Positions 404-18,580 of a DNA stretch of 64,000 nucleotides are shown in pieces. This DNA comes from a virus (lineage: Duplodnaviria > Caudoviricetes): IMG/VR virus record IMGVR_UViG_3300028886_000028, positions 256,001-320,000 of that record; one strand, written 5' to 3'. The position numbers were made by a program, and so were the translations under genes. The notes beneath the pieces were generated by a model that was not told where the DNA came from, did not search any database, and saw nothing but the letters and a program-made list of their open reading frames with translations. Each line of letters begins with the position of its first letter. Position 1 is the first letter of the stretch.

Positions 404-465
404 AAGGAAACATACAGCAAGTTTAATTTATGGATTGCAACTCTTTAAAAACAAATGTTTCCTAA
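404..465 (+). ncRNA. ACAGCAA cassette 1 (cargo: Cys-GCA anticodon stem-loop mimic)
   Basis: Stem AGGAAACAT(405-413)/ATGTTTCCT(455-463), ACAGCAA, internal GGA-TTGCAAC-TCT. Confidence 0.75.
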
Positions 466-469
466 ACAT

Positions 470-541
470 GGCCGGTTAGTGTAGCGGTCAGCACACGAGA
501 TTTTCATTCTCGGGACGGGGTTTCGACTACCCCACCGGCTA
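470..541 (+). tRNA. tRNA-Glu(TTC)
   Basis: Cloverleaf; CGAGA-TTTTCAT-TCTCG anticodon arm, TTCGA T-loop. Confidence 0.92.
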
Positions 542-566
542 CTTAATAGAATTTTAAAATGATGTT

Positions 567-818
567 ATGGCTAAACTTGTAGCAATTAACTGGGAAAGTT
601 TGAAAAGTGGAGCGATGCTTCGAATGAAAGATTTTCCATCAATAAAACTTTTGAAACTTAGTAACTCTAAAGCCTGTTATTTTCCATATGGCGACGATTC
701 AATTATAGTTGATATAAAAGAATATGAATCTGAAATTAATGGCTTTTATTATTATTTTCAGACAAAAAAAGACGACTGGCATCCATTAACAATAAGACTT
801 TGGGAAGAATATGATTGA
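567..818 (+). CDS. Hypothetical protein
   Basis: 83-aa ORF overlapping the next start. Confidence 0.65.
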   Translation: MAKLVAINWESLKSGAMLRMKDFPSIKLLKLSNSKACYFPYGDDSIIVDIKEYESEINGFYYYFQTKKDDWHPLTIRLWEEYD

Positions 819-1275
819 AAATAGTATTAGCCTTGCGTATAAAAGGATGAAAGAAAAAAAGTGGGATAAAATATATGTGCTGATTGATATACATAACACT
901 ATATTTAGACCTTCTTATCGTAACGGAGAAACTTATCAATGGTTTAATGGTGCTAAAGAAGCACTACAGTTTTTAACCAAAAATAGTAAGATTTGTTTGA
1001 TATTGTGGACTTCATCACATAAATCAAATATTGATGAATACATAAAAGTGTTTGAAGAAAATGGAATTCATTTTGATTATGTTAATGAAAATCCGGAAGT
1101 AACAAATGACGATATTGGAAATTTCGATAAAAAATTATATTTCAATATAGGAATTGACGATAAATTTGGCTTTGATGCAGAAAATGGAGACTGGATGTCA
1201 TTGTTGAAAAAAGTGACAACATTATTTCCATTAAAAAATGATGAGAAATGGGCAGAAGATGAACTGAAAATATAA
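811..1275 (+). CDS. HAD-superfamily hydrolase-like protein
   Basis: DIHNTI (DxD-like), LILWTS, VNENP and IDDK motifs. Confidence 0.65.
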   Translation: MIENSISLAYKRMKEKKWDKIYVLIDIHNTIFRPSYRNGETYQWFNGAKEALQFLTKNSKICLILWTSSHKSNIDEYIKVFEENGIHFDYVNENPEVTNDDIGNFDKKLYFNIGIDDKFGFDAENGDWMSLLKKVTTLFPLKNDEKWAEDELKI

Positions 1276-1282
1276 AATAACA

Positions 1283-1354
1283 CGGGAATTTACAGCAATT
1301 TTTGTTAAAACATATGAATATCTTACATAGAACGTTGAACACTTAGTTCCCTAA
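1283..1354 (+). ncRNA. ACAGCAA cassette 2
   Basis: Stem GGGAATT/AGTTCCC, TACAGCAA; shares inner scaffold TGTTAAAACAT...AACGTTGAACA with cassette 8. Confidence 0.75.
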
Positions 1355-1373
1355 TTTTAAAAGTACAGTAAAT

Positions 1374-1628
1374 ATGTTAAGAGGAAGTGATATTGAAATA
1401 ATATGCAAAAACAAAATGGAATACTTATTTATGGCTTCATTAATAAGTTCCGATAATATAAGAACTATAAAAGACGCAGAGGAATCATTGAAATTTATAA
1501 GTGAAGTAGAAGAAGCATTAAAAACGGCTCAAATTTCAGAAGATAAGAAAAAAGAATTTGAAAAATATATAGAAAAAGGAAAAAATATATTACAAACAGA
1601 TGTAGAAAGATTTAAAAACGAAAAATAA
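1374..1628 (+). CDS. Hypothetical protein
   Basis: 84-aa ORF. Confidence 0.6.
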   Translation: MLRGSDIEIICKNKMEYLFMASLISSDNIRTIKDAEESLKFISEVEEALKTAQISEDKKKEFEKYIEKGKNILQTDVERFKNEK

Positions 1629-1630
1629 AT

Positions 1631-1711
1631 TGTGTGGTTCCAGAGTGGTCAAATGGGCTTGACTGTAAATCAAGTGCTTCGGCTTCGGAGGTCCGAATCC
1701 TCCCCACACAA
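1631..1711 (+). tRNA. tRNA-Tyr(GTA)
   Basis: CTTGA-CTGTAAA-TCAAG arm, long variable arm, TGTGTGG/CCACACA acceptor. Confidence 0.92.
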
Positions 1712-1836
1712 CAAATAATAAATTAACATTTTTTTACAAGTTTTATTTTGCTTTTAAAATGTTTTTTTGTATATTTGCATAAATAACTCTAAATTTGAAA
1801 TTTCTCAACCTTGGCAAAGGCTAAAAACAATAAAGC

Positions 1837-1975
1837 AAGGAATCTAACAGCAAAAACTATATTTAGCAATTGGGGCCGTTGACGGTAGTTCGATTCTGCC
1901 TGCCCTGACGAACAATATGCGCTAAACATCAGGGTATAGTTCAGTGGTAGAATAACGTATTTAAATGATTCCTAA
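1837..1975 (+). ncRNA. ACAGCAA cassette 3 carrying circularly permuted tRNA-Gln(TTG)-like body
   Basis: Stem AGGAATC/GATTCCT; tRNA 3' part 1866-1908 precedes 5' part 1930-1957. Confidence 0.85.
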
Positions 1976-1981
1976 CATTAA

Positions 1982-2055
1982 CGGGGTGTAGCTCAGTAGG
2001 TTAGAGTGCTAGTTTTGGGAACTAGTTGTCGCAGGTTCGAGTCCTGTCACCCCGA
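1982..2055 (+). tRNA. tRNA-Pro(TGG)
   Basis: CGGGGTG/CACCCCG acceptor, CTAGT-TTTGGGA-ACTAG arm. Confidence 0.95.
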
Positions 2056-2195
2056 CAATAACCGCTGAGGCGCAAGAGCAATCGCAAGTGAGACGATAGT
2101 AAATAATGGACGGCGTGTAAACAACACATAAAAAGCCTCACCCATTTGAGGGTAGAATCAATCCGATAATCACTCTACGCAGTCAGGTTATAAAA

Positions 2196-2338
2196 ATAAT
2201 ATCAAATAATCGTTCCACGTAAGTCCAATAAACTGTGGGTTCGTGAAAATCGAAAGAATGTACCAGGTTATCTTCCTGGAGAGGTATGGGTGGAGGTAAG
2301 GTCTCTAGCAAAAGCCCAAACGTGATAGTTGATATTAT
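2196..2338 (+). ncRNA. Unassigned structured RNA
   Basis: 10-bp closing stem ATAATATCAA/TTGATATTAT with GC-rich internal hairpins, no ORF. Confidence 0.45.
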
Positions 2339-2344
2339 ATCGTC

Positions 2345-2460
2345 AAGGAGTCTAACAGCATATGTATAATTACGACGGTTAGCTTAGTGGTTAAAGCCTT
2401 GGATTTTACTAAGAGACGTTGGTTCGAATCCAGCACCACCGGGTTTAAAATGACTCCTAT
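2345..2460 (+). ncRNA. ACAGCA cassette 4 carrying a tRNA body with truncated acceptor and collapsed anticodon loop
   Basis: Stem AGGAGTC/GACTCCT; D arm GCTT-AGTGGTT-AAAGC and T arm GTTGG-TTCGAAT-CCAGC at 2376-2441. Confidence 0.8.
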
Positions 2461-2495
2461 TTTTTGAAAAACATTAATTTAAAAAAATAAAGATT

Positions 2496-2831
2496 ATGCT
2501 ACATGTTTATGAAAAAGTAACAAAGGATAAAATAGACTTTCCTGCGTATACATTATGCTTTCTTGGCATAATAATGAATAAACTTGAGTTTTATGGTTTA
2601 ATAGACGGTAAAAAAGGTAAGATTGATACAGAATCTCCTACTACACTCGTTATACCTGTTGTAAGCAGAAAGTTTGAATATTGCTATGATGGCATAGAAC
2701 TTATTAAAAAAACATTGAAACGTAGAGGCTTTGTGTGTGATATGGCTCATTACAAAACCATCGAAATTGACGAAAAAGATGGAACAAAAAGTAAAGGCTA
2801 TTCATACGAATATAAAATCTCAAAAGCCTAG
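2496..2831 (+). CDS. Hypothetical protein
   Basis: 111-aa ORF. Confidence 0.7.
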   Translation: MLHVYEKVTKDKIDFPAYTLCFLGIIMNKLEFYGLIDGKKGKIDTESPTTLVIPVVSRKFEYCYDGIELIKKTLKRRGFVCDMAHYKTIEIDEKDGTKSKGYSYEYKISKA

Positions 2832-2842
2832 TATATAATACA

Positions 2843-2909
2843 CGGGAGCGTACAGCAAAGTTTATGCATATTCACAGTAATTTTTGGGTAGTTAAACAGG
2901 CGTTCCCTT
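2843..2909 (+). ncRNA. ACAGCAA cassette 5
   Basis: Stem GGGAGCG/CGTTCCC, TACAGCAA. Confidence 0.7.
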
Positions 2910-2959
2910 TTTTTGAATTTATTGTTTTAAATTATAATAATTGTAATTAAAAAAAAAGA

Positions 2960-3982: not shown

Positions 3983-4253
3983 TTATATATAGATATATTT
4001 GGCAGTGTTGATGAAGTACACTGCAAGCCTTATGAATCACGTTTTGGGTAGTAGTTTTTTGTGTTCTTTCATTATCAGAGGTTTTACTTTACCAAGCGTG
4101 GTAAAGGAGTGATTCAAATAAGGCGGTTGCCGATAAACGTAAACGGCTCGTGGCGTGTACCAAACGAGAGAATTGCAAAATTTTCAAGAAGCACGTTTAT
4201 CCTGTTTGCTGCTGCAAATAAAAGGTACTGGGCAAACCTAAATTGCCCAATTC

Positions 4254-4328: not shown

Positions 4329-4397
4329 CATAATAAATGTCAGTTCTATTTACATTTTTCGCTCTTTTACTAATATTTATATACAAATAGATGTATT

Positions 4398-5855: not shown

Positions 5856-6074
5856 ATGAAAAAATATGCAGAAAAATGTTGGCGATGTGGAAAGCCATTA
5901 ATATGTCACGGAAGCTTTATGATTAGTGACTGGGAAGGTATAGAAATGGATGAAAATGATGACGCTGTTATAACAGATTATTATTGTCCATATTGTGGTA
6001 TGGAATATTCTATTACAGATACGCCTAAAAATCAAATGAACAATTATCAATATTTTAAAAAAGAGCAAACATGA
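5856..6074 (+). CDS. Zinc-ribbon protein
   Basis: CWRCG...CPYCG; ATG after promoter. Confidence 0.65.
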   Translation: MKKYAEKCWRCGKPLICHGSFMISDWEGIEMDENDDAVITDYYCPYCGMEYSITDTPKNQMNNYQYFKKEQT

Positions 6075-6457
6075 AATTTGGAGAAAGTTATGAGATTTTA
6101 ACAAAGGGAGGTTTTGTTGCCAGAAAGATTTGGGAAGGAGTTTTTATTTGGCTTAAACCTTCAGCAATAGTTAAATCAGAATGGTGCAGAGACCCAATTT
6201 TGAAAATGATTGCTGATGCAAATGGTGGAGAAGTGAAAGCTGAAGCTGTTTTGTGCAAGCATAACATTTATAAAAATGAAGTTATGACTGGTTGGATTCC
6301 GCAACAAGATGATTTGGCAGCAGATGATTGGCATGAATGTAAACCAGAAATAGTAAATGGCATATCTGGTAAACTTATTGTTATTGATAGCGCTAATAAA
6401 AATGATGGCTATGTTGGTGATTTGTTTGATGGGGCAGATGTAATTAAAAAACCATAA
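6071..6457 (+). CDS. DUF2829 / Tad2-like protein
   Basis: MKFGES...G..VARK.W and GWIPQQDDLAADDW motifs. Confidence 0.8.
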   Translation: MKFGESYEILTKGGFVARKIWEGVFIWLKPSAIVKSEWCRDPILKMIADANGGEVKAEAVLCKHNIYKNEVMTGWIPQQDDLAADDWHECKPEIVNGISGKLIVIDSANKNDGYVGDLFDGADVIKKP

Positions 6458-7280: not shown

Positions 7281-7283
7281 AAT

Positions 7284-8060
7284 ATGGCAATAGAAGTAAA
7301 CAAAATATATAATGAAGATTGTTTTGATACTATGAAACGTATGGAGGACAGGTCTATCAATGTAATATTGACAAGTCCTCCATATAACATGACGAAACGA
7401 AAAGGAGGCTATGCTGACAGTGGAAGGTATGATGTCTATAAAGATTGGAAAACTGAAAAAGAATATTTAGATTTTACTAAAAACTTGTTTAATGAATTTA
7501 ATAGAATCATATCTGATAATGGAGTAGTATTATATAATTTCGGCTACAGTATTGAAAATCCTGCATTACCTTATAAATTAGTAACTGAAATAGTTGAAAA
7601 TACTAACTGGCGTTTAGTTGACACTATATGTTGGAAAAAAAGTAGTGGTTTGCCTTTTCCTGCTAATAAATGTAGATTAAGCAGAACTTGGGAATATGTA
7701 TTTGTTTTTGCGAAAAATGGTATGATAAATGATTTTTTCATTGATAAAGGAATAGCATCAATTAGTGAAAAAACAAATCAAATATATTATAATGTATTTT
7801 ATAACTATATTGAAGCTAGAAACAATGATGAAAAAACAAATAAATTGAATCAAGCAACGTTTAGTAGTGAATTAGTTGTTAAACTTCTTGACTTATATTC
7901 AAGTGATGGCTTTATAATATACGACCCATTTATGGGGACAGGGACAACAGCAATAGGTTGTTTGAAGTCAAAAAAACAATTATATTATATTGGTAGTGAA
8001 ATATCAGAAGAACAGGTAAAATATTCTATAGAAAGGATAAACAAAACTCATTTTGTCTAA
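7284..8060 (+). CDS. N4-C/N6-A DNA methyltransferase (beta class)
   Basis: TSPPY then DPFMGTGTT. Confidence 0.9.
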   Translation: MAIEVNKIYNEDCFDTMKRMEDRSINVILTSPPYNMTKRKGGYADSGRYDVYKDWKTEKEYLDFTKNLFNEFNRIISDNGVVLYNFGYSIENPALPYKLVTEIVENTNWRLVDTICWKKSSGLPFPANKCRLSRTWEYVFVFAKNGMINDFFIDKGIASISEKTNQIYYNVFYNYIEARNNDEKTNKLNQATFSSELVVKLLDLYSSDGFIIYDPFMGTGTTAIGCLKSKKQLYYIGSEISEEQVKYSIERINKTHFV

Positions 8061-8586: not shown

Positions 8587-8661
8587 GCACCTGTAGCTCA
8601 GCCGCATCAGAGCATGGCACTTCTAATGCCAGGGTCCCGGGTTGGAATCCCGGCAGGTGTA
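8587..8661 (+). tRNA. tRNA-Arg(TCT)
   Basis: TGGCA-CTTCTAA-TGCCA arm, GCACCTG/CAGGTGT acceptor. Confidence 0.88.
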
Positions 8662-8675
8662 CAAATTAAAATACA

Positions 8676-8850
8676 AAGGAACGTACAGCAAGTTTGTTTT
8701 AAATGTAATTTATTTATTTATTCAGACTGAAGCGAGAATAGAGAAGCACAAAATAATAATTGCGAGGCACTATTCTTATTTTTTACCGCAAATAATGAAG
8801 AATTTCATAATTTGCAAAGTCATTCCCGGACTTAAAAGGGCGTTCCTTAA
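8676..8850 (+). ncRNA. ACAGCAA cassette 6 (long, multi-hairpin cargo)
   Basis: Stem AAGGAACG/CGTTCCTT, TACAGCAA; includes AAGTC-ATTCCCG-GACTT hairpin. Confidence 0.75.
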
Positions 8851-8852
8851 AT

Positions 8853-8926
8853 GCACCAGTAACTCAGTGGATTAGAGTGTTTGATTACGAATCAAATGGG
8901 CGGGGGTTCGAGTCCCTCCTGGTGTA
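8853..8926 (+). tRNA. tRNA-Arg(ACG)
   Basis: TTTGA-TTACGAA-TCAAA arm. Confidence 0.92.
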
Positions 8927-9242
8927 CTAAAAAAAATTAAAAAAAGTTTTGTAAAAAACTATACTTTTCAAAATTAATTAATAATTATAGAAAAATAACT
9001 TCTAAAACTATGGCAAAAAACAGTAAACATAATGTATCATTTATCAATGCTGCGTTTATTTCTAATAAATGCATTGATAATAGTATGTCTACATCAGTCG
9101 TAGATTTTAGTCGAAAAGTTCATAAACAGCATAATTGTATGAGTACTTAGATTGCACTTACACTTCACTATAAATGCCAAGCTGTTGATGAACTCCTAAA
9201 AAAAGTTTTCAACAGCTTTTTTTTGATGTTAAAACAATTGTT

Positions 9243-9539
9243 ATGAAAAATAATTGCAATAGAACTAAGTTGTTTAGGTTTTTAAAAGAACGAAATATAT
9301 TTAAGCCTTTTATTAAGGCATTTTATGACGAATATCAAATTAATACAAGAGTTGAATGGTGTGACACAAGCCATAAATTTAACGGCCATGTACCCGCATC
9401 AATTTATGATTATTGCTATGAAATAAATTGTATTGAAGAAATTATCAATTACGCTTTTGAATGGGAAAAAACAGCACAGGGGTATGATTTTTGGTCAAGG
9501 GTAAATAGAGAGTGGAGGTATTATTGCGATAGCAATTAA
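9243..9539 (+). CDS. Hypothetical protein, FLKE...F.W..T.QG..FW paralog family
   Basis: Motifs shared with 18729, 22428, 35068, 39243, 55220. Confidence 0.7.
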   Translation: MKNNCNRTKLFRFLKERNIFKPFIKAFYDEYQINTRVEWCDTSHKFNGHVPASIYDYCYEINCIEEIINYAFEWEKTAQGYDFWSRVNREWRYYCDSN

Positions 9540-9599
9540 TAAAATTTAACATAAAATATTTTGTTATCAAAATTTTTTTATGTATATTTGCGCAAAAAT

Positions 9600-9673
9600 T
9601 GGGAGTTAGCACAGTTGGTTAGTGCAGCTGACTGTTAATCAGCAGGTCGTGGGTTCGAGTCCCACACTCCCAG
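9600..9673 (+). tRNA. tRNA-Asn(GTT)
   Basis: GCTGA-CTGTTAA-TCAGC arm, G73. Confidence 0.95.
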
Positions 9674-9680
9674 CACAAAT

Positions 9681-10519
9681 GGTGAGGTGGCAGAGTGGTC
9701 GATTGCACCGGTCTTGCGCCTAATTCGAGTGCTATGGCGAAAAATCCCATAGTAGAATCTCCCTAAAACGGTGGAAGTCCTTTGAGACTCCTATGAGAAT
9801 CCTTGTTGATTCAATAATGAGGTGACAATAATAACAAACACTAACCAATAATGTGTAAGGATAATACCGTGCTAAATTGAGAATAATACTAAAATTTATC
9901 ATATATGAGATAACAAATAGAGGAAACTAAATATGGTACTTGCGCAAAATTTTAGTTAGTATTAAAAATGAGTTGTATTCTTATATGGTAGACAGCCATT
10001 AAGTTGAGACGCTTAGTATAAATATGAGCATCAGGCGAGAGTGGGTTCAAACACCACCAACTCATTTATAAATTGAAAAGCATACAGAATATCCAAAAGT
10101 ATGTAAAAAGACGATGGTGCAACATAGTCAATTTTTAATTTATTTCTCATAAATGTGTAGAGAGTATATAGGAGATACCTAAGTTGAAATTAATTTGAGG
10201 GAAAGTACTCAGCGTAGTAATACGTAATACATGAAAATTGTATTTTAAAGGAGGTTTGCCAATTGGGATAGCCCTATCAAATTACTTGCAAGAATTTCAA
10301 TATGGTAAATATGTATTCCAGACTACAACGAACATAGGAGAAATAGCGAGGAGATAGTTCAAGACTAGAGCAGCAGTTCTTGTAAACTGAAGACAGTGGG
10401 TGTAATTCCCACACTTTTCGCCACGACTTTCTTCTAAATTTGGTTATGGCAACATAAAGTAGCAAGGAAAACCGGCGGACGTGACGAGCGTTCCGGGGGT
10501 TCGAATCCCTCCCTCACCG
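9681..10519 (+). tRNA. tRNA-Ser(TGA), split by intron (exon1 9681-9715, exon2 10467-10519)
   Basis: Joining CCGGTCTT|GAAAACCGG restores CCGGT-CTTGAAA-ACCGG; GGTGAGG/CCTCACC acceptor, long variable arm, G73. Confidence 0.9.
9716..10466 (+). mobile_element. Group I intron (ORF-less, 751 nt) in tRNA-Ser anticodon loop
   Basis: 5' exon ends in U, intron ends in G; P/Q/R/S-like blocks AAAACGGTGGAA, AATACCGTGCTAA, GTAGAGAGTATATAGGAGA, AATATGTATTCCAG. Confidence 0.85.
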
Positions 10520-10522
10520 CAT

Positions 10523-10873
10523 ATGATAAAACTTGAACATTTTAAAAAAGGCAATTATTATTATATAAATGCTTATAGTGGTGATACTAGAGTTGGAAAA
10601 CTTGGTATTGAATACAGAGGAAGCCAAAATATACATATTAATTATGTTATCACTAGCGTAAGTTACACCGGAAAAGGTATTGCTACTATGATGATTAACA
10701 AGGCTATTGAATTATTTAAAGGATATGATATAAGTCTTTATGTAGTACCAATGCCTAGGAGTGAAGAAAAAATTAAATATAAAACAATAAAAGGCCTTTC
10801 TGAATTTTACAATAAGTTTGGGTTTGTTCGTACTGATGACCCTTGTTTAGTTGAAATGATATTAAAAAGATGA
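10523..10873 (+). CDS. GNAT-family acetyltransferase
   Basis: SYTGKGIATMMI and FYNKFGF motifs; start set to ATG after the tRNA. Confidence 0.8.
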   Translation: MIKLEHFKKGNYYYINAYSGDTRVGKLGIEYRGSQNIHINYVITSVSYTGKGIATMMINKAIELFKGYDISLYVVPMPRSEEKIKYKTIKGLSEFYNKFGFVRTDDPCLVEMILKR

Positions 10874-10945
10874 AAATAAAACAGAAAACATATAAACAGA
10901 TGTAAGTCTGCGTCAGTTAAGAGTTATGACGCAGTTATGTAAAAT

Positions 10946-11019
10946 GCGCTCGTAGCTCAGCTGGTAGATGCACAACACTTTTAATGTTGGGGTCCTGGGT
11001 CCGAGTCCCAGCGGGCGCA
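10946..11019 (+). tRNA. tRNA-Lys(TTT)
   Basis: CAACA-CTTTTAA-TGTTG arm. Confidence 0.9.
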
Positions 11020-11218
11020 CTAAAATGTTACTATTATACGACATTTTATAGAAACTTTTAAGGATGTTTAATTTAAAGTATTTGAAAATTATGTTGACAT
11101 TTATTTTCGGTGCAGCAGTAGGCGCAGTCGCTTATAGCTGGTGGACTAAGCGATAAGTCCAAAAACATGGAGAGTAAGGTGGCGCACTCCGCCAATTAAA
11201 ACGTCACAATTATAAAAT

Positions 11219-11293
11219 TCCGTGATGGTGTAGGTGGTTGTTGCTCGTTGGACTGAAAATCCAAAGGCCCTTGTTCAACTCAAGGTCGCGGAA
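11219..11293 (+). tRNA. tRNA-Phe(GAA), atypical D arm
   Basis: TTGGA-CTGAAAA-TCCAA arm, CCTTG/CAAGG T stem. Confidence 0.82.
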
Positions 11294-11549
11294 CAAATAA
11301 AAAGTTGAAATTTATCTGTGGAATACAAACACGTTCAATCCAAGCAAGAAGGGGAACGATTTATAGGTATCAATCATAGACAGATAAAAATCTTGCAAGT
11401 ATTTCAGCTTTACTTTTAATGGTATGAGATAAACTAAGGGCTTATGTGAGGTTGTCACGAGCGTAGCATAGGAGGTGCAAGCCCACGTTTCACGAAGCTC
11501 AATGATTGACATCTATTTGTGACGTGGTTGTTTATCAATTGCCATATAT

Positions 11550-11632
11550 GGATGCGTGTAAGGACTCCTCTGGGGAGTGACCGTGTGATTGACATCAGGT
11601 AACAAACATAGGTTCGAATCCTATTGCATCCA
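11550..11632 (+). ncRNA. tRNA-like element (intact acceptor and T arm, non-canonical middle)
   Basis: GGATGCG/TGCATCC, ATAGG-TTCGAAT-CCTAT. Confidence 0.55.
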
Positions 11633-11813
11633 CAAATGCTTGATAATGAGTTTGGAGCAGTTAAAAAGGTGTGTGAAGCTCTAAATTAGTAGTTAGGCGG
11701 TATTATGTATGTGCTCTCGAAAGATTGAGCTGATTTAATATCGGTTAATGAACATGAAACAATTTCTCATTTCCGCAAGCATCAATAAAAATTGGGATGA
11801 AGATTAAGTAGTA

Positions 11814-11897
11814 GACATGCATGGGTATTCAAGCGGCTGAAGCGCCTAGTATTACAAACTAGTACACCATACGTATGTTCGAATCCTATTGCATCCA
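11814..11897 (+). pseudogene. Degenerate tRNA
   Basis: CTAGT-ATTACAA-ACTAG arm but poorly paired T and acceptor stems; 3' 25 nt duplicate 11612-11636. Confidence 0.5.
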
Positions 11898-12047
11898 CAA
11901 AAGGTGTTCGAAAAAACGTAGTTCGAAATGCGTTGAAGTAGATTAAATGTGGAAAGTCGTACCCTTCCGAGCAGACGTGTTTTCCACGCCTCGTTTGGGC
12001 TAAAGTGGGCAGAGATTCACGCCTCCAACACAGCATCTTTTTTATAT

Positions 12048-12127
12048 AGGGTATTAGCTCAGTTGGTTTAGAGCGTCTGACTTACATTCAGAAGGTTTCG
12101 TGGGTTCGATTCCCTCATACCCTACCA
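12048..12127 (+). tRNA. tRNA-Val(TAC), encoded CCA
   Basis: TCTGA-CTTACAT-TCAGA arm. Confidence 0.92.
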
Positions 12128-12251
12128 AGGAAACTAACAGCAAGGTTAAAAATGGCTTGTAACCCGTGGGTCACAGGTTCGAATCCTGTCTTAGGCTTTA
12201 AAAGTCTGGGTAGCTCAGTTGGCAGAGCAACGTTAATAAAATGTTTCCTAA
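12127..12251 (+). ncRNA. ACAGCAA cassette 7 carrying circularly permuted tRNA-Thr(TGT)
   Basis: Stem AGGAAAC/GTTTCCT; 3' part 12154-12197, linker TTAAAA, 5' part 12204-12232. Confidence 0.88.
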
Positions 12252-12255
12252 AAAT

Positions 12256-12329
12256 GTTGGTGTAGCTTAGTTGGTTAAAGCATTTGACTGATATTCAAAA
12301 GACCGGGGGTCCGAGTCCCTCCATCAACA
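12256..12329 (+). tRNA. tRNA-Ile(GAT)
   Basis: TTTGA-CTGATAT-TCAAA arm. Confidence 0.92.
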
Positions 12330-12344
12330 CACAATACAATTTTT

Positions 12345-12416
12345 GGGCTGTATAGTGTAAAGGCTAACACGAGACTTTTGCAAAGTCTAATTGCGGTTCG
12401 AGTCCGATACGGTCCA
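12345..12416 (+). tRNA. tRNA-Ala(TGC)
   Basis: AGACT-TTTGCAA-AGTCT arm, G3.U70. Confidence 0.85.
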
Positions 12417-12422
12417 CTAGAC

Positions 12423-12502
12423 AAGGGAACTAACAGCAAGTTATTATTTATGTTAAAACATCAGACTGCAAATTTGAAAACGTTGAACAAATAGTTCCCT
12501 AA
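12423..12502 (+). ncRNA. ACAGCAA cassette 8 (cargo: Cys-GCA anticodon stem-loop)
   Basis: Stem AGGGAACTA/TAGTTCCCT; CAGA-CTGCAAA-TTTG at 12462-12476. Confidence 0.8.
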
Positions 12503-12516
12503 TATTCATATTAAAC

Positions 12517-12924
12517 GGGCCTAAATTGGTATAGATTGGCAGTAGTTTGGTAGAAATCAAGCAGTGGGCATACACTAGAAATAGCAAAAAAAATATAAAC
12601 GGCGAGAATGTAGATTCTCCTGCTTATGCTTACGCAATGGCTGCGTAAGGCATGAGTCGAGAGACTAGGCTCTTAGGAACAGAACATCCTAGTAATTTTT
12701 CTTAGCGTTGTACGTTAAGATGGTGGAACTGATGACTTCTAGTCATCCCCTAGTTTTCCTCGTTTTCACAAAATGAGGTGGCGGTGAGTTAACTTTCCAA
12801 TGTTTTCCTCGTTTTCTCAAAATGAGGTGGTCTCAAAGGCGGTGTCTTCGGACACTTTGGGTAAGCTTGTATAAATTTCTATGGAACACTGAACAAGACG
12901 AGGGTTCAACTCCCTCTAGGTCCA
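12517..12924 (+). ncRNA. ssrA: tmRNA
   Basis: GGGCCTA/TAGGTCC acceptor with G3.U70, T arm GAGGG-TTCAACT-CCCTC, tag ORF 12601-12648 GENVDSPAYAYAMAA*. Confidence 0.93.
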
Positions 12925-13100
12925 CTAAATACTAAAAAAAAACTTATGAAACATTTTAGCGAAGGAAATCAAGAAGAAGAGTATGATTCTATGAAAGAAT
13001 ATGAAACTAACATACCTTCTCATTTTAAAGACGATTAAAAAAGTAACTTAAAATTTCTTTTTTACAATTTTTTTATGTATATTTGCAAAAAATATTGGTT

Positions 13101-13352
13101 ATGGGAAAAATTTTAGATGCAGAATTTAGAAAAGAACTTTATAAAAATCTTGTAGAGGCCGGGTATGAAAAGACAGAGGCTCAAAAGATTGTTGGTAAAA
13201 AGTATTATGGAGAGTTGCATGAAGAAGTAAAGAAGGAAGTTGATGTGTTTTTAAATGCATTAGTAAAAGAGGATTTTAGTGTTGTTTTTGATTGCGATTC
13301 AGTGACAAAGAAAGTAGAAGAACTTAAAAAGTTAAAAGAATTACTTAGTTAA
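13101..13352 (+). CDS. Hypothetical protein
   Basis: ORF after TATATTTG promoter; ATG start chosen. Confidence 0.7.
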   Translation: MGKILDAEFRKELYKNLVEAGYEKTEAQKIVGKKYYGELHEEVKKEVDVFLNALVKEDFSVVFDCDSVTKKVEELKKLKELLS

Positions 13353-13358
13353 TAATAT

Positions 13359-13431
13359 TGTGGGGTAGAGCAGTTGGTAGCTTGTCAGACTCATAATCTG
13401 GAGGTCGTGGGTTCGAGTCCCACCCCCGCTA
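13359..13431 (+). tRNA. tRNA-Met(CAT), initiator-like
   Basis: 1:72 mismatch, GAGC/GCTT D stem, CTCATAA loop; lacks the three G-C anticodon-stem pairs. Confidence 0.88.
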
Positions 13432-13443
13432 CTTTATAAATAC

Positions 13444-13575
13444 AAGGAAGTTGACAGCAAACGATAAGAAATTTTCCCAAGCCGGAGGTCGTTGGTTCGA
13501 ATCCAACTAGGAATTGTGTTTATCCTATAGCTCAGATGGTTTAGAGCGCCAGCTATTTCATTTAATGCTTCCTAA
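13444..13575 (+). ncRNA. ACAGCAA cassette 9 carrying circularly permuted tRNA-Gly(CCC)-like body
   Basis: Stem AGGAAGT/GCTTCCT; 3' part 13474-13512, 5' part 13523-13553. Confidence 0.85.
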
Positions 13576-13578
13576 AAT

Positions 13579-13655
13579 AGCCTCAGGGGATGCTAGGCGT
13601 GTCCGTCACTCTGTCACAGTGTTCAATCAGGTGGGTTCGAATCCCATTGGGGCTG
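13579..13655 (+). tRNA. tRNA-Asp(GTC)
   Basis: CACT-CTGTCAC-AGTG arm, G73. Confidence 0.85.
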
Positions 13656-13682
13656 CGTAGTATAAAACGTTTCCTAAAATAT

Positions 13683-13756
13683 GGTGTACGTGGTTGAGTG
13701 GTTTAGGCGCAAGATTGTGGTTCTTGTCTACGCAGGTTCGAATCCTGTCGTACACC
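13683..13756 (+). tRNA. tRNA-His(GTG)
   Basis: G-1:C73, CAAGA-TTGTGGT-TCTTG arm. Confidence 0.92.
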
Positions 13757-13944
13757 CTAGAATAATTTAATATTTTTAAATAAAATTAGTTATGAAAAGT
13801 TTTTGGTAGATTATCAATCAGTTTTGGTAGCTGAATCGTGTTCGTGGTACTCCTAGAGTTAATTTATTATCATCGAGTGAAAATAAGGGCGATAATAGTC
13901 CTTTTACAACATTAGAAAAATATAATAAATTAATATTAGGAATT

Positions 13945-14259
13945 ATGGAAAAATTACAATTTACAGACAAAGCAACCACAAAAGAACAGTATTTAAAGTT
14001 CAAGGAGTATATTAAGCAAAATTGTCACGGTCACGCTGCTTATGTAGCATACTACATTTTCAAGCATCGTATTGAAGGTGAAAAACGTGATGAATATCTT
14101 GAAGACGAGGTTAGACATCGTTGTTGGAAAGGCCTTTATCATGGTAGAATTCTACTCAGTGGTGGAGACATGACAGAAAACTATGCAATACCACTCTTTA
14201 AGAATAGGGTAATTAGAAAGTATAACGAATTTGCTGACCCAGATGGAAAAGAAAAATAA
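13945..14259 (+). CDS. Hypothetical protein
   Basis: 104-aa ORF. Confidence 0.7.
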   Translation: MEKLQFTDKATTKEQYLKFKEYIKQNCHGHAAYVAYYIFKHRIEGEKRDEYLEDEVRHRCWKGLYHGRILLSGGDMTENYAIPLFKNRVIRKYNEFADPDGKEK

Positions 14260-14539
14260 GTTATACGTATTAATTGACAAATCCCTTGATGCTGTATACG
14301 GTTGTGTTCAAGGTGGTCACGCAGTGGCGCAATGGTTACTTGAACATGATTATGGTTGGGAAAACGAGTACTTGATTTATTTGAGTGCTGATGTCTATAA
14401 GTGGAAAAACAAGTTATCTGTTCTTGGTGTCGGTTATACTGAATTTAAAGAACCAGACCTTGACAATAAAACCACATCTTTAGCTGTATTAGGGCACGAT
14501 AAGTTATTTAAGAAATTAAAATTAATCAGTGCTAATTAA
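14243..14539 (+). CDS. Peptidyl-tRNA hydrolase II (PTH2)-like protein
   Basis: LYVLIDKSL...VQGGHAVAQW...F.EPDLDN..TSLA pattern. Confidence 0.7.
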   Translation: MEKKNKLYVLIDKSLDAVYGCVQGGHAVAQWLLEHDYGWENEYLIYLSADVYKWKNKLSVLGVGYTEFKEPDLDNKTTSLAVLGHDKLFKKLKLISAN

Positions 14540-14568
14540 GCGTTACGGCTGTAGAAATACAGCCTATT

Positions 14569-14645
14569 GGCCCTATGGCAGAGTGGTCGATTGCGGTCGC
14601 TTCTAAACCGATTTATCATCGTGGGTTCGAATCCTACTAGGGTCA
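14569..14645 (+). tRNA. Amber suppressor tRNA (CTA)
   Basis: GGCCCTA/TAGGGTC acceptor; GTCGC-TTCTAAA-CCGAT puts CTA (14603-14605) in the loop centre. Confidence 0.75.
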
Positions 14646-14829
14646 CTACGGCTTGGTGTATCCATTGAGATACTGAAATAGGTTAGACAAGCACAAGTCA
14701 CGTAAGAAATGACAGGCAGGCAGTAATGCTGTGCGAGGATTAGTCCCTTGCTCTAATCTCTTGATGGTAATAGAGACCTTTTTAAGTTAGAGGTTAAACT
14801 TATATTTTTTTAAAAAAGTATTAATAATT

Positions 14830-15078
14830 ATGGTAGTACAAGATATTAAGCCTTTAGTGAAAGGCATCGCTCAATTACAATATGTATTAGCCGGAGGTAT
14901 AGCAGTATATAAAATAATTGCTGTAGATGGCACGGAATATCAACTGGAAATAGATGTGAGCAATAAAAATGATGTTGGAGCAAGTGCTTCTTTTAATACA
15001 ACTGAAAAGGCTTTACTTCTAATGAGGTGGATAAGGAAAGCTAATGAAAATGATACTCTTATCAAAATAAAGGGCTAG
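14830..15078 (+). CDS. Hypothetical protein
   Basis: 82-aa ORF. Confidence 0.7.
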   Translation: MVVQDIKPLVKGIAQLQYVLAGGIAVYKIIAVDGTEYQLEIDVSNKNDVGASASFNTTEKALLLMRWIRKANENDTLIKIKG

Positions 15079-15152
15079 CAGTAAAAGGTTCATCCTAAAG
15101 CTCTATTCGTAGGAATGCTGAAGGACTGAGTGTTCGAATCACTCCTAGTCCA
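15072..15152 (+). ncRNA. tRNA-like element with Ala-type acceptor and T arm, no D stem
   Basis: GGGCTAG/CTAGTCC (G3.U70), A73, GAGTG-TTCGAAT-CACTC. Confidence 0.6.
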
Positions 15153-15170
15153 CAAATTTAAATAAAAGTT

Positions 15171-15359
15171 ATGGCTATAATAGTTACAAAACATGGAGAT
15201 AGAATGCTTCATGGAAAATGCACAAAATGTGGCTGCGAATTTTTGTATCAATTTACTGATATAGTATATGATTATGATAGAATTAATGCATATGATTCAG
15301 AATTAAGGTGCAAATATGTACGTTGCCCAGAATGTAATGCTGTTATAGGATTAGATTAA
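15171..15359 (+). CDS. Zinc-ribbon protein
   Basis: CTKCGC...CPEC. Confidence 0.65.
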   Translation: MAIIVTKHGDRMLHGKCTKCGCEFLYQFTDIVYDYDRINAYDSELRCKYVRCPECNAVIGLD

Positions 15360-15365
15360 ACAAAT

Positions 15366-15698
15366 ATGGGAGAAAAGTACACTTATAGTGGATTTGAAAA
15401 CAGAGAAACTTGCGAACATTTAAGAGCAGGAGAAACATGCAAAGTAACTGGTATAGGAAATAGTATGACACCAGTTCTTCAATCTCACCAACCTGTTATT
15501 TGCGAACCGGTTACTGTTGAAACTGAATTGAAGAAAAAAGACATTGTTCTTTGTAAAGTGAAAAGATATTATTATTTACATTTTATTCATGCAATAAAGA
15601 ATAATGGAGAACAGTTTCTAATAGGCAACAATCATGGTCGCATGAATGGTTGGATAAGCAGAAATCAGGTATATGGTAAAGTTATAGAGATACTTTAA
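15366..15698 (+). CDS. S24/S26 peptidase-like protein
   Basis: GNSMTP...DIVL...H...GNN...V.GKV. Confidence 0.65.
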   Translation: MGEKYTYSGFENRETCEHLRAGETCKVTGIGNSMTPVLQSHQPVICEPVTVETELKKKDIVLCKVKRYYYLHFIHAIKNNGEQFLIGNNHGRMNGWISRNQVYGKVIEIL

Positions 15699-16430
15699 AA
15701 ATCTCTTTTATACACCCTAGTAGTTTAAATCGTGAAAACTAGATGTATTCTAATGGTGAGTCGAATCATCCTGGGGCACTTTAGTCCTATTATTCCCTGA
15801 GAGTTGCCTAGCGTCACTCAAAGTAGTAGGTTTTGTGAATGGGTAACTGTATGAAATGGCTGTTTGTATCTTATCGTGTAGATGCATGGCACGTCATACA
15901 AACACAATGGAGATAAATCATGCAACTTATCATCCTTGTTCACACAAAGTACCCATTCAATTTTTTTAAAAGTTTGTGATAATTATGGATGGGTTTGATT
16001 ACAAAAATGGAGAACTAGTCTGTAAAAGATGCGGAAGCAGAAATGTATCAGTAAGAGCTGGTATGATGACAGACAGAGCGATATGTAATAGTTGTGGTAA
16101 TGAAGATTACATTTAACAAAAATTAATATTTTTAATTTCTTTTTTATAATTATTTTTTGTATATTTGCGTTGTAATAAGAAAAACATATGGCTTCGCTAT
16201 CAAGAAGTCAAAGGCATAACAGCCTATCGCATTTGTCCATAGCGCTTGTAACTTTGCGAACGGCGGGCTTTTCTCTAGTACAGCCTAAAAACTTGAGGGT
16301 TAGTTGTTTATCCACAAAGCAAGCACGGGTTCGAGGAAATTGGTGGTGCGTCTATAAATCCTCCGAATAACCCACGATAAGGGTGTCGTTTTGTCTGTTG
16401 TACGGCACTAGTAAAACAATAGATAATTAT

Positions 16431-16503
16431 GCTCCGTTAGCTCAGTTGGAAGAGCACTAGATTTGTAATCCTGAGGTCGTGGGTTCAAGTCCCGCACGGA
16501 GCT
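16431..16503 (+). tRNA. tRNA-Thr(TGT), mismatched anticodon stem
   Basis: GCTCCGT/ACGGAGC; CTAGA-TTTGTAA-TCCTG has 2 mismatches. Confidence 0.8.
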
Positions 16504-16575
16504 CAGAATAAGGGGGAGAGCCTGTAGTTACGGCAGAACAGCATTCGGCTTCTACGCCAACCTCCCCAAATTTTT

Positions 16576-16649
16576 GCTCCATTAGCTCAGCTGTATAGAG
16601 CGTCATCCTCCTAAGATGAATGTCACAGGTTAGAGTCCTGTATGGAGCA
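16576..16649 (+). tRNA. tRNA-Arg(CCT)
   Basis: TCATC-CTCCTAA-GATGA arm. Confidence 0.88.
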
Positions 16650-16703
16650 CGGAAATCCCTTCTCAGTTGGGGGATAATAATATCACTGAGTGGCGGCTAA
16701 TTT

Positions 16704-17000
16704 ATGACAAAGAAATATTGGAAAGATTGGCAAAATAGAATTGGAGAAACCAAAAACATATACAAGTTTTGGAATTATTCAGATGGCAAAAAAATGAAAA
16801 GGTTTGGAGGTATATTAAACAACCTTGCAGGCGATAAATTATCTAAAGCAACATTTAATCATACAACAGATACTGTTGATTTGGTTATTGAAAGGTGGCA
16901 TCAAACGTTTTCAAAATCAATTCACATTCAGAATGAATATATAACATTGAATCGTGAAGATATTGCTTGTATAGAATTTAATAAAGAATATAATACATAG
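16704..17000 (+). CDS. Hypothetical protein
   Basis: 98-aa ORF. Confidence 0.65.
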   Translation: MTKKYWKDWQNRIGETKNIYKFWNYSDGKKMKRFGGILNNLAGDKLSKATFNHTTDTVDLVIERWHQTFSKSIHIQNEYITLNREDIACIEFNKEYNT

Positions 17001-17117
17001 AAGGACATACTGGGGTAAAATCTCAGAGAAGTTACCGTAGGCAACGAATAATTGCATCCTACATCAAGGCGTTGTTACAGTTGTACGGGATAGTGGAATG
17101 TAAGTATTATATATAAA

Positions 17118-17204
17118 GGAGGGATGGGTGAGTGGCTTAAACCAGCACATTGCTAACGTGCCGGCCCTTAATTGGGCCCGGGGGTTCGAATCCCTCTCCC
17201 TCCG
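17118..17204 (+). tRNA. tRNA-Ser(GCT)
   Basis: TTGCTAA loop, long variable arm, G73. Confidence 0.92.
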
Positions 17205-17225
17205 CTTAACTAAATTTAGTTAAAT

Positions 17226-17430
17226 GCTGTGCATCAGTGGTCCAGAGTGGTGCGCGGCTGCTACGCAAGGAAATATTCGAATAATGGTAATGCGTAGAAA
17301 ATCCCGGGCCGATGGATAGGAACGGAGAGCACCTGGTAGAGTGCGAAAGTGCGCGAAGGCGTTTACGGGTAGCTTAATGGTGTCGGTTAAGGCTTACGAT
17401 AGCCTTGTTTCATATTAGGTGATGTACAGC
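17226..17430 (+). ncRNA. Unassigned ~205-nt structured RNA
   Basis: 11-bp closing stem GCTGTGCATCA/TGATGTACAGC, GC-rich relative to genome. Confidence 0.55.
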
Positions 17431-17523
17431 CCTTTTATGGAAAAGTTATGAGGGTATATTAACTTAATGTTACGTTATGCCCTCATTTTTTTTATTTTAG
17501 TCTAACTAAAAATTTTATATCAT

Positions 17524-17769
17524 ATGGCGCAAAAGAAATTTTCTGAAATGGATATGATTATGATGGAACTACAGAAAATCGGAAACGATGAATTTATGTT
17601 GGGGTTCCAATATCCAGGGAACACTTTGGAAGAAGTTTTAACTGAAGCAATAAAAAAATTGCAGGATTATCTGGAAAACAATAAAGAAAATAAAGACAAA
17701 GTTTCTCCTTATGGCTACAGAATAAATCTTGAGCTTTTTAAAAAGGGAGAGCCAAAAAATATTTTCTAG
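17524..17769 (+). CDS. Hypothetical protein
   Basis: 81-aa ORF. Confidence 0.65.
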   Translation: MAQKKFSEMDMIMMELQKIGNDEFMLGFQYPGNTLEEVLTEAIKKLQDYLENNKENKDKVSPYGYRINLELFKKGEPKNIF

Positions 17770-17818
17770 GTGTATTTTCCTATCATAATTTGATATTTAT
17801 TAAAAATATTCAAATAAC

Positions 17819-18319
17819 ATGATAGGTTCATTACATACAATGAGTTATCTTAAACCTTGCAATGTTTTTTTAAAATTTTTTGCAAGGTTTAAAAGGACTC
17901 AAACAGTTAATATAAAAGAGCAGTATGAAAAATACAATATAAGGGTGTTTGACTTTCATATATACTTTGTTGGAATAAATGGCAAAGCCATTTTTAAATA
18001 CAGTGGTATAAAATACGAAATATCTTCTATGTACAAAATATTCAATTATTTAGAATACGTTGGCAATTCTTATGTTAGAATTGTATTAGAAGATAATGGT
18101 GAGAAAATCACAGAAAACGATAGGCTTTTACTTGAAAAACGTTTTATTGATTATTGTAAGATAATAGAGACTATATATCCCAGAATAAAATTTTTCGGAG
18201 GGTATAGAGAATATGATTCAAACATGTTATATAGATTTAAAAATGACGCTCCTAATGATTTAATCTTTTATAAAAGAGTTGATAAATTAAATAAATTCGC
18301 CGGTGGGGGAGTGGTTTAA
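17819..18319 (+). CDS. PI-PLC X-box-like phosphodiesterase fold protein (divergent)
   Basis: GS.H.MSY...TQ...I.EQY....IRVFD pattern. Confidence 0.5.
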   Translation: MIGSLHTMSYLKPCNVFLKFFARFKRTQTVNIKEQYEKYNIRVFDFHIYFVGINGKAIFKYSGIKYEISSMYKIFNYLEYVGNSYVRIVLEDNGEKITENDRLLLEKRFIDYCKIIETIYPRIKFFGGYREYDSNMLYRFKNDAPNDLIFYKRVDKLNKFAGGGVV

Positions 18320-18384
18320 CCCAGCAGTCTCCAAAACTGCCGTAGCTTAGGCTACCGCATGTTCGAATCGTGCCCGGCGAGCCA
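18297..18384 (+). tRNA. tRNA with Trp anticodon (CCA) and long variable arm; encoded CCA end
   Basis: GCAGT-CTCCAAA-ACTGC arm, GTAGC-TTAG-GCTAC V arm, G73. Confidence 0.88.
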
Positions 18385-18389
18385 TTTAC

Positions 18390-18466
18390 GGCGTGATAGC
18401 TCAGTTGGTCAGAGCAACAGACTCATATTCTGTGGGCCGTAAGTTCGAATCTTACTCACGCTACCA
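18390..18466 (+). tRNA. tRNA-Met(CAT) elongator (or Ile2), encoded CCA
   Basis: ACAGA-CTCATAT-TCTGT arm. Confidence 0.9.
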
Positions 18467-18580
18467 AGGGAACTTACAGCAAGTATTCATCGTGAAGGAA
18501 TGGTCTACTTGAAAGTCTTAAGAGCTTTTGTGCGTAAGCACTTGTGGGTTCGAATCCCACCGAAAATAAAAGTTCCCTAA
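18466..18580 (+). ncRNA. ACAGCAA cassette 10 carrying acceptor-less tRNA-Leu(TAA) body
   Basis: Stem AGGGAACTT/AAGTTCCCT; AAAGT-CTTAAGA-GCTTT arm, GTGC-GTAA-GCAC V arm, GTGGG/CCCAC T arm, only 3-bp acceptor. Confidence 0.85.

Follow-up and report, generated by a model that had tools for sequence, protein, structure and literature searches.

To our knowledge, the Ro60-Y RNA particles described from animals and from a few bacteria and phages always have a TROVE protein, a CGAA-type RNA motif and from one to four RNAs. The window analysed here, a stretch of 64,000 nucleotides corresponding to positions 256001-320000 of the 401,138-bp IMG/VR phage record IMGVR_UViG_3300028886_000028 (complete according to CheckV), carries between its positions 404 and 18580 ten copies of a cassette built around the word ACAGCAA; these are likely to be Y-RNA-like partner RNAs of a Ro60-like protein encoded by the same phage. 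Positions below are those of the window unless the genome or another locus is named. Within phage tRNA clusters themselves, the species 1 and 2 RNAs of T4 are small stable non-tRNA RNAs, co-transcribed with the phage tRNAs and freed by tRNA-processing enzymes; the cassettes resemble them as small RNAs in such clusters, though the T4 RNAs are not known to share a handle or to be linked to a Ro60-like protein.

Three described systems come closest. In the first, Ro60 touches the conserved helix of Y RNAs chiefly on its 5' strand, where the recognised motif adjoins the terminal helix, and in the bacterial YrlA RNAs the motif GNCGAAN0-1G near the 5' end is the presumed contact with Rsr (PMC4201824). 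The Ro60 of Thermus phage phiLo pairs with Yrl1 and Yrl2, and phage Ro60 binds phage-encoded Y-like RNAs as well as host PNPase (PMC12135203). In the second, the Class I RNAs of Dictyostelium, for which the search pattern GTTGRCCTTACAGCAA...GTCAACTG has been used (PMC5054030), the RNA starts with AAG, ends with CUGU and has a 6-bp covarying stem (Kjellin et al. 2021, PMC7919456); the 5' strand is followed by an 11-nt motif with T3, C6, C9, A10 and A11, ..TTACAGCAA (PMC7919456, PMC5054030). The third is the Ro60-like gp130 of the Felixounavirus Bas63, which counters the Ppl defence and is encoded directly upstream of a tRNA array; the authors guessed that some of the 'tRNAs' there are Y RNAs (PhageMaP preprint, bioRxiv 10.1101/2024.10.10.617714).

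Layout and distribution of the cassettes

All ten elements of the preliminary description are present, on the + strand, and share one layout: cAA, a 5' strand of GGRA type, 0-3 nt, ACAGCAA, a variable cargo, and a complementary strand that ends in TYCC and is usually followed by TAA. The terminal helix, or clamp, and the word after its 5' strand are together referred to here as the handle. The word reads ACAGCAA in nine of the ten window cassettes and ACAGCAT in cassette 4 (at 2347); the edges show the cAA-GG start in 8/10 and the CC-TAA end in 7/10. Within the 18.2 kb from 404 to 18580 there are ten + strand ACAGCAA words, compared with a chance expectation of about 1.5 for that span and strand (10.9 +/- 3.7 for the whole 64-kb window, both strands). 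A genome-wide scan yielded an eleventh copy, between two tRNA-Leu genes at genome 189041-189179, and no convincing cassette on the opposite strand. Seven of the eleven copies end 6-17 nt upstream of a tRNA or tmRNA gene, and five start 1-15 nt downstream of one; cassettes 2, 4 and 5 are not adjacent to tRNAs.

Beyond this genome, DNA pattern scans picked out about ten other IMG/VR contigs that between them carry about 46 distinct copies, many of these being orthologues of individual window cassettes. The first DNA pattern used gave mostly chance matches, and 110 leftover loci made a poor background; because these had been preselected for half of the motif, the opposite strand and the reversed sequence served as controls. 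A scan of bacterial genomes gave only seven contigs from metagenome-assembled genomes, probably phage DNA and little informative on cellular carriers. Besides phages, the atlas clusters of the family include giant viruses (Nucleocytoviricota). At 13660-13680, just upstream of tRNA-His, the 3' half of a handle (AACGTTTCC-TAAAAT) stands alone, with neither a 5' strand nor ACAGCAA upstream of it; this orphan is a cassette that has decayed or else a shared tRNA leader.

Covariation of the terminal helix

The clamp, given as 7-9 bp in the preliminary description, comprises 6-8 continuous pairs, or 7-9 when the flanking A-U pairs are counted. It differs between copies by compensatory changes: 31 distinct stems are found among 46 copies, with positions 1-6 paired in all of them by several pair types, and exchanging the partners between copies lowers the mean continuous stem from 6.9 to 4.4 pairs. 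When 33 short copies taken from 15 phage loci are aligned with MAFFT, 86% of the cells are paired, as against 62% in column shuffles (0/500 reach the observed value) and 34-47% in controls with slid partners; the covariation score is 0.669, as against 0.228 when shuffled (again 0/500 as high). Eight of the nine helix pairs vary on both sides, and the seventh, near the inner end of the helix, is C-G in 31 of the 33 aligned copies. The clamp is an RNA helix under selection.

A covariance model built from the 33-copy alignment, called R1 below, recovers two further window cassettes from outside its training set, cassettes 2 and 8. Two other pairings were considered and set aside. The pairing of the handle's GCAA with UUGU in the cargo, given by RNAalifold, was dropped because an invariant word provides no covariation test; a closing helix P2 (GUU/AAC) after the motif occurs in only some copies, and so was excluded from the family definition.

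Cargo of the individual cassettes

The kinds of cargo first noted are all borne out in the window, with three permuted tRNA look-alikes, two tRNA bodies and five sets of hairpins. Minimum-free-energy folds of such AT-rich cargo are unreliable, and comparative evidence has therefore been used.

Among the hairpin copies, cassette 1 (406..462) has the handle GGAAACAT/ATGTTTCC plus ACAGCAA, scores 53.9 bits with R1 (in the training set), and lies 7 nt upstream of tRNA-Glu and about 20 nt downstream of the promoter-like box TGTATATTTGC. Cassette 2 (1284..1351; GGGAATT/AGTTCCC plus ACAGCAA; R1 E 0.016, outside the training set) is flanked by two small open reading frames (ORFs), and its cargo is paralogous to that of cassette 8 (12425..12499; R1 E 3.4e-6, outside the training set), which is located between tRNA-Ala and the tmRNA gene and contains a clean anticodon-arm mimic with a 5-bp stem and the loop CUGCAAA. 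Cassette 5 (2844..2907; GGGAGCG/CGTTCCC plus ACAGCAA; R1 32.2 bits, in the training set) is followed by a run of seven T. Cassette 6 (8678..8846), with its multi-hairpin cargo the longest window copy at 169 nt, has a tRNA-Arg gene on either side, one ending 15 nt upstream and the other starting 6 nt downstream.

The two tRNA bodies are those of cassettes 4 and 10. Cassette 4 (2347..2457; GGAGTC/GACTCC plus ACAGCAT) encloses a normal-order tRNA body that scores 38.7 bits with the tRNA model and has a conserved 6-nt 'anticodon' loop, AUUUUA; orthologues are found in five other contigs. Cassette 10 (18468..18577; 37.1 bits), which starts 1 nt after tRNA-Met, has a D-like arm, an anticodon arm with the loop CUUAAGA and a T arm, with the handle in place of the acceptor stem.

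The permuted look-alikes are cassette 3 (1839..1972), 9 nt upstream of tRNA-Pro; cassette 7 (12129..12248), which begins 1 nt downstream of tRNA-Val, with tRNA-Ile 7 nt beyond its end; cassette 9 (13446..13572), between tRNA-Met and tRNA-Asp; and the eleventh copy. In these the tRNA parts follow in circularly permuted order -- T arm, an acceptor stem closed by a loop (7 bp in cassette 7 and 5 bp in cassette 9), D arm -- and when rotated the three window copies are called as tRNAs by ARAGORN. Among orthologues of the permuted copies, the T arm and the closed acceptor stem keep their pairing through double changes, as shown for cassette 7. The cargo may be non-chargeable, as first proposed, but this is an inference, since a known YrlA is itself cleaved by RNase P and given CCA (PMC4201824).

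With the anticodon arm taken as a 7-nt loop (YU-NNN-R-N) on a stem of 4 bp or more, such hairpins occur in 14 of 46 family members, compared with 4.4 +/- 2.0 in shuffled cargo. The anticodon-loop geometry that had been ascribed to several window copies is thus enriched across the family, but within the window it is clear only in the copies at 12425 (CUGCAAA) and 18468 (CUUAAGA). Their orthologues keep the stem and the flanks while the loop triplet differs: GCA/UGA/UGG for cassette 8 (window 12425-12499 against L110 8244-8318 and L132 2955-3025) and UAA/GCA/GAA for cassette 10 (window 18468-18577 against L051 2536-2625 and L058 2228-2325). Between cassette 8 and its L110 orthologue, two of the five differences in 83 nt fall within the loop triplet. 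Since the sample is small, this variation is treated as a lead.

The Ro60-like protein and its coupling to the handle

A gene for a Ro60-like protein (DUF2828/DUF7788 plus vWA) lies on the + strand at genome 246215-247882, outside the window and 8.5 kb upstream of cassette 1; its probable start is an ATG 45 nt in, with a product of 539 aa. In Pfam it matches DUF7788 at 1.4e-20 and, weakly, DUF2828 and VWA_2. No TROVE gene had been seen in the window, and PF05731 indeed has no match across the whole 401-kb genome; PF11443, searched directly against the genome, has none either. There are 1,703 database homologues at E <= 1e-5, and among the matches listed many carry PF11443 plus PF25043 and some are named 'DUF2828 family protein'. 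By tblastn, the protein family was found in 680 records of cultivated phages, among them Felix O1, Listeria A511, mycobacteriophages and phages of Campylobacter and Bacillus; some of these homologues are annotated as 'Ro-like RNA binding protein'.

The protein is predicted to have the Ro60 fold. All of the best twelve Foldseek matches of its AlphaFold model (28 homologues; pLDDT 81, pTM 0.80) to the PDB are Ro60/Rsr/TROVE structures, with alignment from end to end; a sequence-profile search of the PDB gave no match. The modelled architecture is that of Ro60/TROVE, a ring of helical repeats and then a vWA domain that contains a MIDAS motif; the motif, DTSGS, is invariant among homologues. Directly downstream of the gene, behind the same promoter-like box, lies a phage-encoded tyrosyl-tRNA synthetase gene (L147 8213-9490, genome 248213-249490; 8.6e-79).

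Across very different phages, the handle accompanies the DUF2828/DUF7788 gene family, on the same strand. The searchable cassette-bearing records all encode the Ro60-like protein (4/4; 78, 75, 54 and 30% identity). In the other direction, 76 IMG/VR loci were fetched via the protein, at 79% down to 24% identity and with +/-10 kb flanks; in these, a strict detector found 55 cassettes on the strand of the gene, as against 8 on the other one and 10 when both strands of the reversed sequence were scanned. R1, run on 80 protein-fetched loci, gave 41 matches at E <= 0.01, all on the strand of the gene and about half of them from outside the training set; many are found 50-130 nt ahead of the start codon or immediately behind the stop codon. 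The coupling is to the gene and not to tRNA arrays, because 32 of the 55 cassettes near Ro60-like genes are in loci without any tRNA gene; 17 of the 21 matches within 500 nt of the gene likewise have no tRNA within 1 kb. In cultivated phages, cassettes were confirmed in Salmonella phage Felix O1 and Mycobacterium phage Tourach only: four are found downstream of Felix O1 gp42, within its tRNA array, and three downstream of Tourach gp54, with no tRNA in 13 kb. Of the partners for which co-occurrence had been suggested (TROVE/Ro60, RtcB or another gene), TROVE has no match in this genome, and the strand-specific pairing is with the DUF2828/DUF7788 gene; only 14 of the 83 related loci have an RtcB gene at most 10 kb from that for the Ro60-like protein.

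In related phages, a hairpin-type cassette is found in the 5' leader of the Ro60-like gene itself, ending between a few nt and some 100 nt short of the start codon (L157 9876-9944, L170 9889-9956, L171 9888-9956, L180 5414-5471, L201 9920-9976, L237 5876-5946 and L238 5940-5998). The leader in the present genome has a promoter-like box only (L147 6080-6260). The presence of cassettes in this position in many related phages suggests that the Ro60-like protein may regulate its own mRNA.

The features by which the family is defined -- a covarying helix with its C-G pair, 0-3 nt, ACAGCA(A), a variable interior, and a DUF2828/DUF7788 gene on the same strand -- are all present in this phage, and we consider it likely that the cassettes are Y-RNA-like partner RNAs of the phage Ro60-like protein. 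The earlier proposal of a single protein that would bind the handle with its interchangeable tRNA-like cargo is supported by the gene for a predicted Ro60-fold protein upstream and by the same-strand coupling; the binding itself is put forward by analogy. Several observations weigh on the other side. The gene and the cassettes are not adjacent in the present genome, being 8.5-28 kb apart and in one case 57 kb; a strict cassette lies within 10 kb in only 26 of the 76 protein loci; and the protein has no Pfam TROVE match, its N-terminal DUF2828 match being weak (E 0.026). Shared ancestry also explains part of the co-location, yet the pairing holds at 24-27% protein identity.

Comparison with known RNA families

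A full match to an already described Rfam family would have removed the novelty of the cassettes. None was found above threshold: searches at the gathering cut-offs and at E <= 5 returned only tRNA, tmRNA and two weak YrlA matches. Nor was the cassette RNA family found described in the literature on DUF2828, on ACAGCAA with tRNA, on phage permuted tRNAs or on phage Ro60/Y RNA.

The YrlA model (RF02553) has a gathering threshold of 69 bits; its best matches are 34.3 bits (12145-12255, cassette 7) and 27.6 bits (13454-13574, cassette 9), both below half of the cut-off and derived from the tRNA-like part only, and the other eight window cassettes have no match. A terminal stem enclosing the YrlA modules in their order of T arm, closed acceptor stem and D arm is seen in cassettes 3, 7 and 9 and in the genome 189041 copy, and not in the other seven. 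That ACAGCAA is not the canonical Ro motif, as suspected from the outset, is confirmed by a regular-expression search, in which GNCGAAN0-1G was absent from all ten cassettes. YrlA is expected within about 4 kb of a TROVE Ro60 gene on the same strand; here the DUF2828/DUF7788 gene is on the same strand, at least 8.5 kb away.

With YrlA and the phage Y RNAs (RF02553; Chen et al. 2014, PMC4201824; phiLo, PMC12135203), then, the cassettes share a helix joining the RNA ends with a single-stranded motif next to its 5' strand, the T arm/closed acceptor/D arm module in three or four copies, a location on the same strand as the gene for a ring-shaped protein of predicted Ro60 fold plus vWA, and an RtcB gene in the same genome. 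They differ in using ACAGCAA rather than GNCGAAN0-1G or CGAA, with a DUF2828/DUF7788 protein rather than TROVE; in numbering eleven per genome here instead of one or two; in having mostly hairpins, anticodon-arm mimics and normal-order tRNA bodies as cargo; and in lying inside tRNA operons, at distances from the protein gene that reach tens of kb.

There are also clear resemblances to the Class I RNAs of Dictyostelium (RF01414; Aspegren 2004): an AAG encoded at the 5' edge of most copies, a covarying end-joining helix of about 6 bp, a variable interior, (C)UU/UA-ACAGCAA directly 3' of the 5' strand with an identical core word, and many genes per genome. The combination of stem and 11-nt motif that characterises Class I is found in the cassettes; in the window 11-mers (ACTTACAGCAA, ACTAACAGCAA, TCTAACAGCAA and similar), C6, C9 and A10 are present in 10/10, A11 in 9/10 and T3 in 7/10. 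As to ends and length, AAG is at the 5' edge in 8/10, the 3' edge is CC-UAA, and the cassettes as encoded are 57-169 nt, compared with 42-65 nt. As encoded, the tail in the present phage is CCUAA, unlike CUGU, and many of the cargoes are long and resemble tRNA; other phage lineages have CUGU or CUGA at the 3' edge, the former as in the amoebae. The known Class I partner is the RRM protein Rnp1A, with no Ro60-like partner reported. RF01414 (threshold 41.5 bits) gave nine weak matches on the genome at E <= 10, the best of 16.1 bits and none of them a cassette, and cmscan of cassette 8 alone gave no match to it. The likeness may reflect homology or convergence.

Bas63 gp130 is comparable, by description only, as a phage Ro60-fold protein accompanied by a tRNA array, and gp42 of Felix O1 is 25.8% identical over 91% to the present Ro60-like protein. 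The Bas63 preprint neither defined an RNA family nor showed RNA binding, and its Ppl counter-defence result concerns that E. coli phage only.

Alternative explanations

Since most copies lie within 1-17 nt of tRNA or tmRNA genes, they might be spacers of tRNA operons without a dedicated protein partner, that is, structured trailers or leaders that aid RNase P/Z processing or transcript stability. This is improbable: cassettes 2, 4 and 5 are not beside tRNAs, 32 of 55 family members near Ro60-like genes are in tRNA-free loci, Tourach has three cassettes and no tRNA, and a spacer needs neither an invariant 7-nt single-stranded word nor conserved tRNA-like cargo.

Improbable, too, is the proposal that these are canonical YrlA-type Y RNAs which work with a host Ro60 (Rsr, TROVE) and not with the phage protein. 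Their scores of 34 and 28 bits are far under the 69-bit cut-off and stem from the tRNA-like part only, the Rsr motif GNCGAAN0-1G is found in 0/10 copies, 7/10 cassettes have no YrlA-like module, and the handle follows the phage gene of DUF2828 type across hosts from many phyla. Three cassettes do have the YrlA module order, YrlA provides the sole Rfam matches besides tRNA and tmRNA, and a TROVE gene is present in Bacteroides thetaiotaomicron, used as a control genome.

The permuted copies could in principle be true permuted tRNA genes, cut at the clamp and ligated by RtcB with opening of the acceptor loop, as in the alga Cyanidioschyzon. The phage does encode RtcB, the rotated copies are called as tRNAs by ARAGORN, and the halves of cassette 7, as read from the sequence, could make a perfect 5-bp anticodon stem. 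In cassette 9, however, the acceptor stem is only 5 bp and the anticodon stem is mismatched, both features being kept in orthologues; the same handle encloses plain hairpins and normal-order tRNA bodies; a bulge-helix-bulge (the splicing-type endonuclease motif) is not evident; and ordinary phage tRNAs already cover the same anticodons, so that we regard this as very unlikely. DNA-level repeats (miniature inverted-repeat elements) or transcription terminators, to which the terminal inverted repeats and the T run after cassette 5 might point, are scarcely credible, given that the inverted repeats diverge by compensatory, pairing-preserving changes, all copies are on one strand, the T run occurs at one copy only, and orthologous copies are at the same places in related phages.

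Proposed mechanism and role

On the reading favoured here, of partner RNAs of the Ro60-like protein, the cassettes would be genes for small RNAs that combine a constant protein-binding handle with a variable, mostly tRNA-derived cargo; the handle would be a 6-9 bp helix joining the RNA ends, with the conserved C-G near its inner end, followed by single-stranded ACAGCAA. The RNAs would be transcribed within phage tRNA operons and released by host tRNA-trimming enzymes, with RNase P cutting on the 3' side, and RNase Z or exonucleases acting on the 5' side. Release with the helix at the ends is expected because of the spacing to tRNA and tmRNA genes already described (seven copies ending 6-17 nt before one, five starting 1-15 nt after one). 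By analogy with Ro60-Y RNA, the Ro60-like ring protein would hold the helix and ACAGCAA and leave the cargo exposed, and in the resulting particles tRNA-handling proteins would be offered T-arm/acceptor/D-arm modules or mimics of the anticodon arm.

The physiological role is probably either counter-defence or RNA repair and quality control during infection. Our leading guess is counter-defence, because gp130 counters Ppl and because the island carries other counter-defence genes; RNA repair with RtcB comes second, and is considered because of the RtcB gene in the window and those within 10 kb of the Ro60-like gene in 14/83 loci. RtcB (60428..61750, + strand; PF01139, 1.5e-58) is 42 kb from the last window cassette and is a possible, distant functional associate of the cassettes.

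A more speculative extension, which we regard as rather doubtful, is that the eleven RNAs form a display library on the Ro60-like ring, with one tRNA part per particle and the 'anticodon' under diversifying pressure, and that they bait or block anticodon-loop nucleases or steer RtcB repair; the idea of such pressure comes from the orthologues that keep stem and flanks while the loop triplet changes. As a corollary of the same tentative idea, the Dictyostelium Class I RNAs would be relatives with a Ro60-like or DUF2828-type partner.

Genomic setting

The DNA derives from cattle gut/rumen metagenomes, and the genome has 31% GC and promoter-like boxes of the Bacteroidota TAnnTTTG type. Four rumen metatranscriptome runs contain 20-50% of the words sampled from 8600-18590 (a measure of presence only). 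The first 18.6 kb of the window contain 25 tRNA-type genes (ARAGORN; two inside cassettes) and the tmRNA gene. One promoter-like box, TGTATATTTGC, at 378..388 on the + strand, occurs in 22 + strand copies genome-wide, 14 of them within 246-315 kb; the identical 11-mer is found upstream of the Ro60-like gene, of cassette 1, of cassette 3 (at 1768) and of several tRNA operons.

The tRNA/small-RNA island is interspersed with counter-defence-type genes, which include a Tad2-like anti-Thoeris domain (6071-6457, 1.5e-10), a DNA methylase (7284-8060, 1.5e-33) and, toward the end of the window, a microbial PARG (63190-63999, 6.5e-32). The Tad2-like gene and the methylase are among the small ORFs between the tRNAs, along with an HNH endonuclease and a GNAT. 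One of the tRNAs (14569-14646) has the anticodon CUA, which reads TAG, and is labelled 'Pyl' by ARAGORN. TAG recoding is not evident, because reading TAG as sense gives a modest gain, raising the total stop-free frame length only from 1.06 to 1.20 genome lengths.

Some further stretches of the island also have unusual features. At 9675-10520, a class II (long variable arm) tRNA-like gene appears to be split, its 5' half GGTGAGG... at 9675 and its 3' half ...CCCTCACCG at 10467-10519 being separated by about 750 nt of non-coding sequence; this insert contains a weak tRNA-like element (10348-10420, 30 bits), and no Rfam intron family matched. After tRNA-Phe there are 750 nt (11295-12047) without a sizeable + strand ORF, in which the same tRNA 3' end, GTTCGAATCCTATTGCATCCACAAA, appears twice, at about 11612 and 11878, with a weak tRNA-like match at 11550-11632 (25.5 bits); this may be an interrupted or duplicated tRNA gene. 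About 280 relatively GC-rich nt between tRNA-Pro and cassette 4 (2057-2340), with no sizeable + strand ORF and no Rfam match, may represent a further structured RNA.

Significance

The cassettes and their putative protein partner would represent a second version of the Ro60-Y RNA design, with another protein family (DUF2828/DUF7788) and another RNA motif (ACAGCAA), and with an expansion, in one giant rumen phage, to eleven RNAs whose tRNA-like cargo is interchangeable. If the proposed binding proves true, a class of unannotated phage small RNAs would gain a name and a partner, many of the 'odd tRNAs' and 'pseudo-tRNAs' of phage annotations would be explained, and the counter-defence protein Bas63 gp130 would gain a candidate RNA cofactor. 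The function of the Dictyostelium Class I RNAs, a question that has stood open for 20 years, would then also gain a concrete and testable lead.

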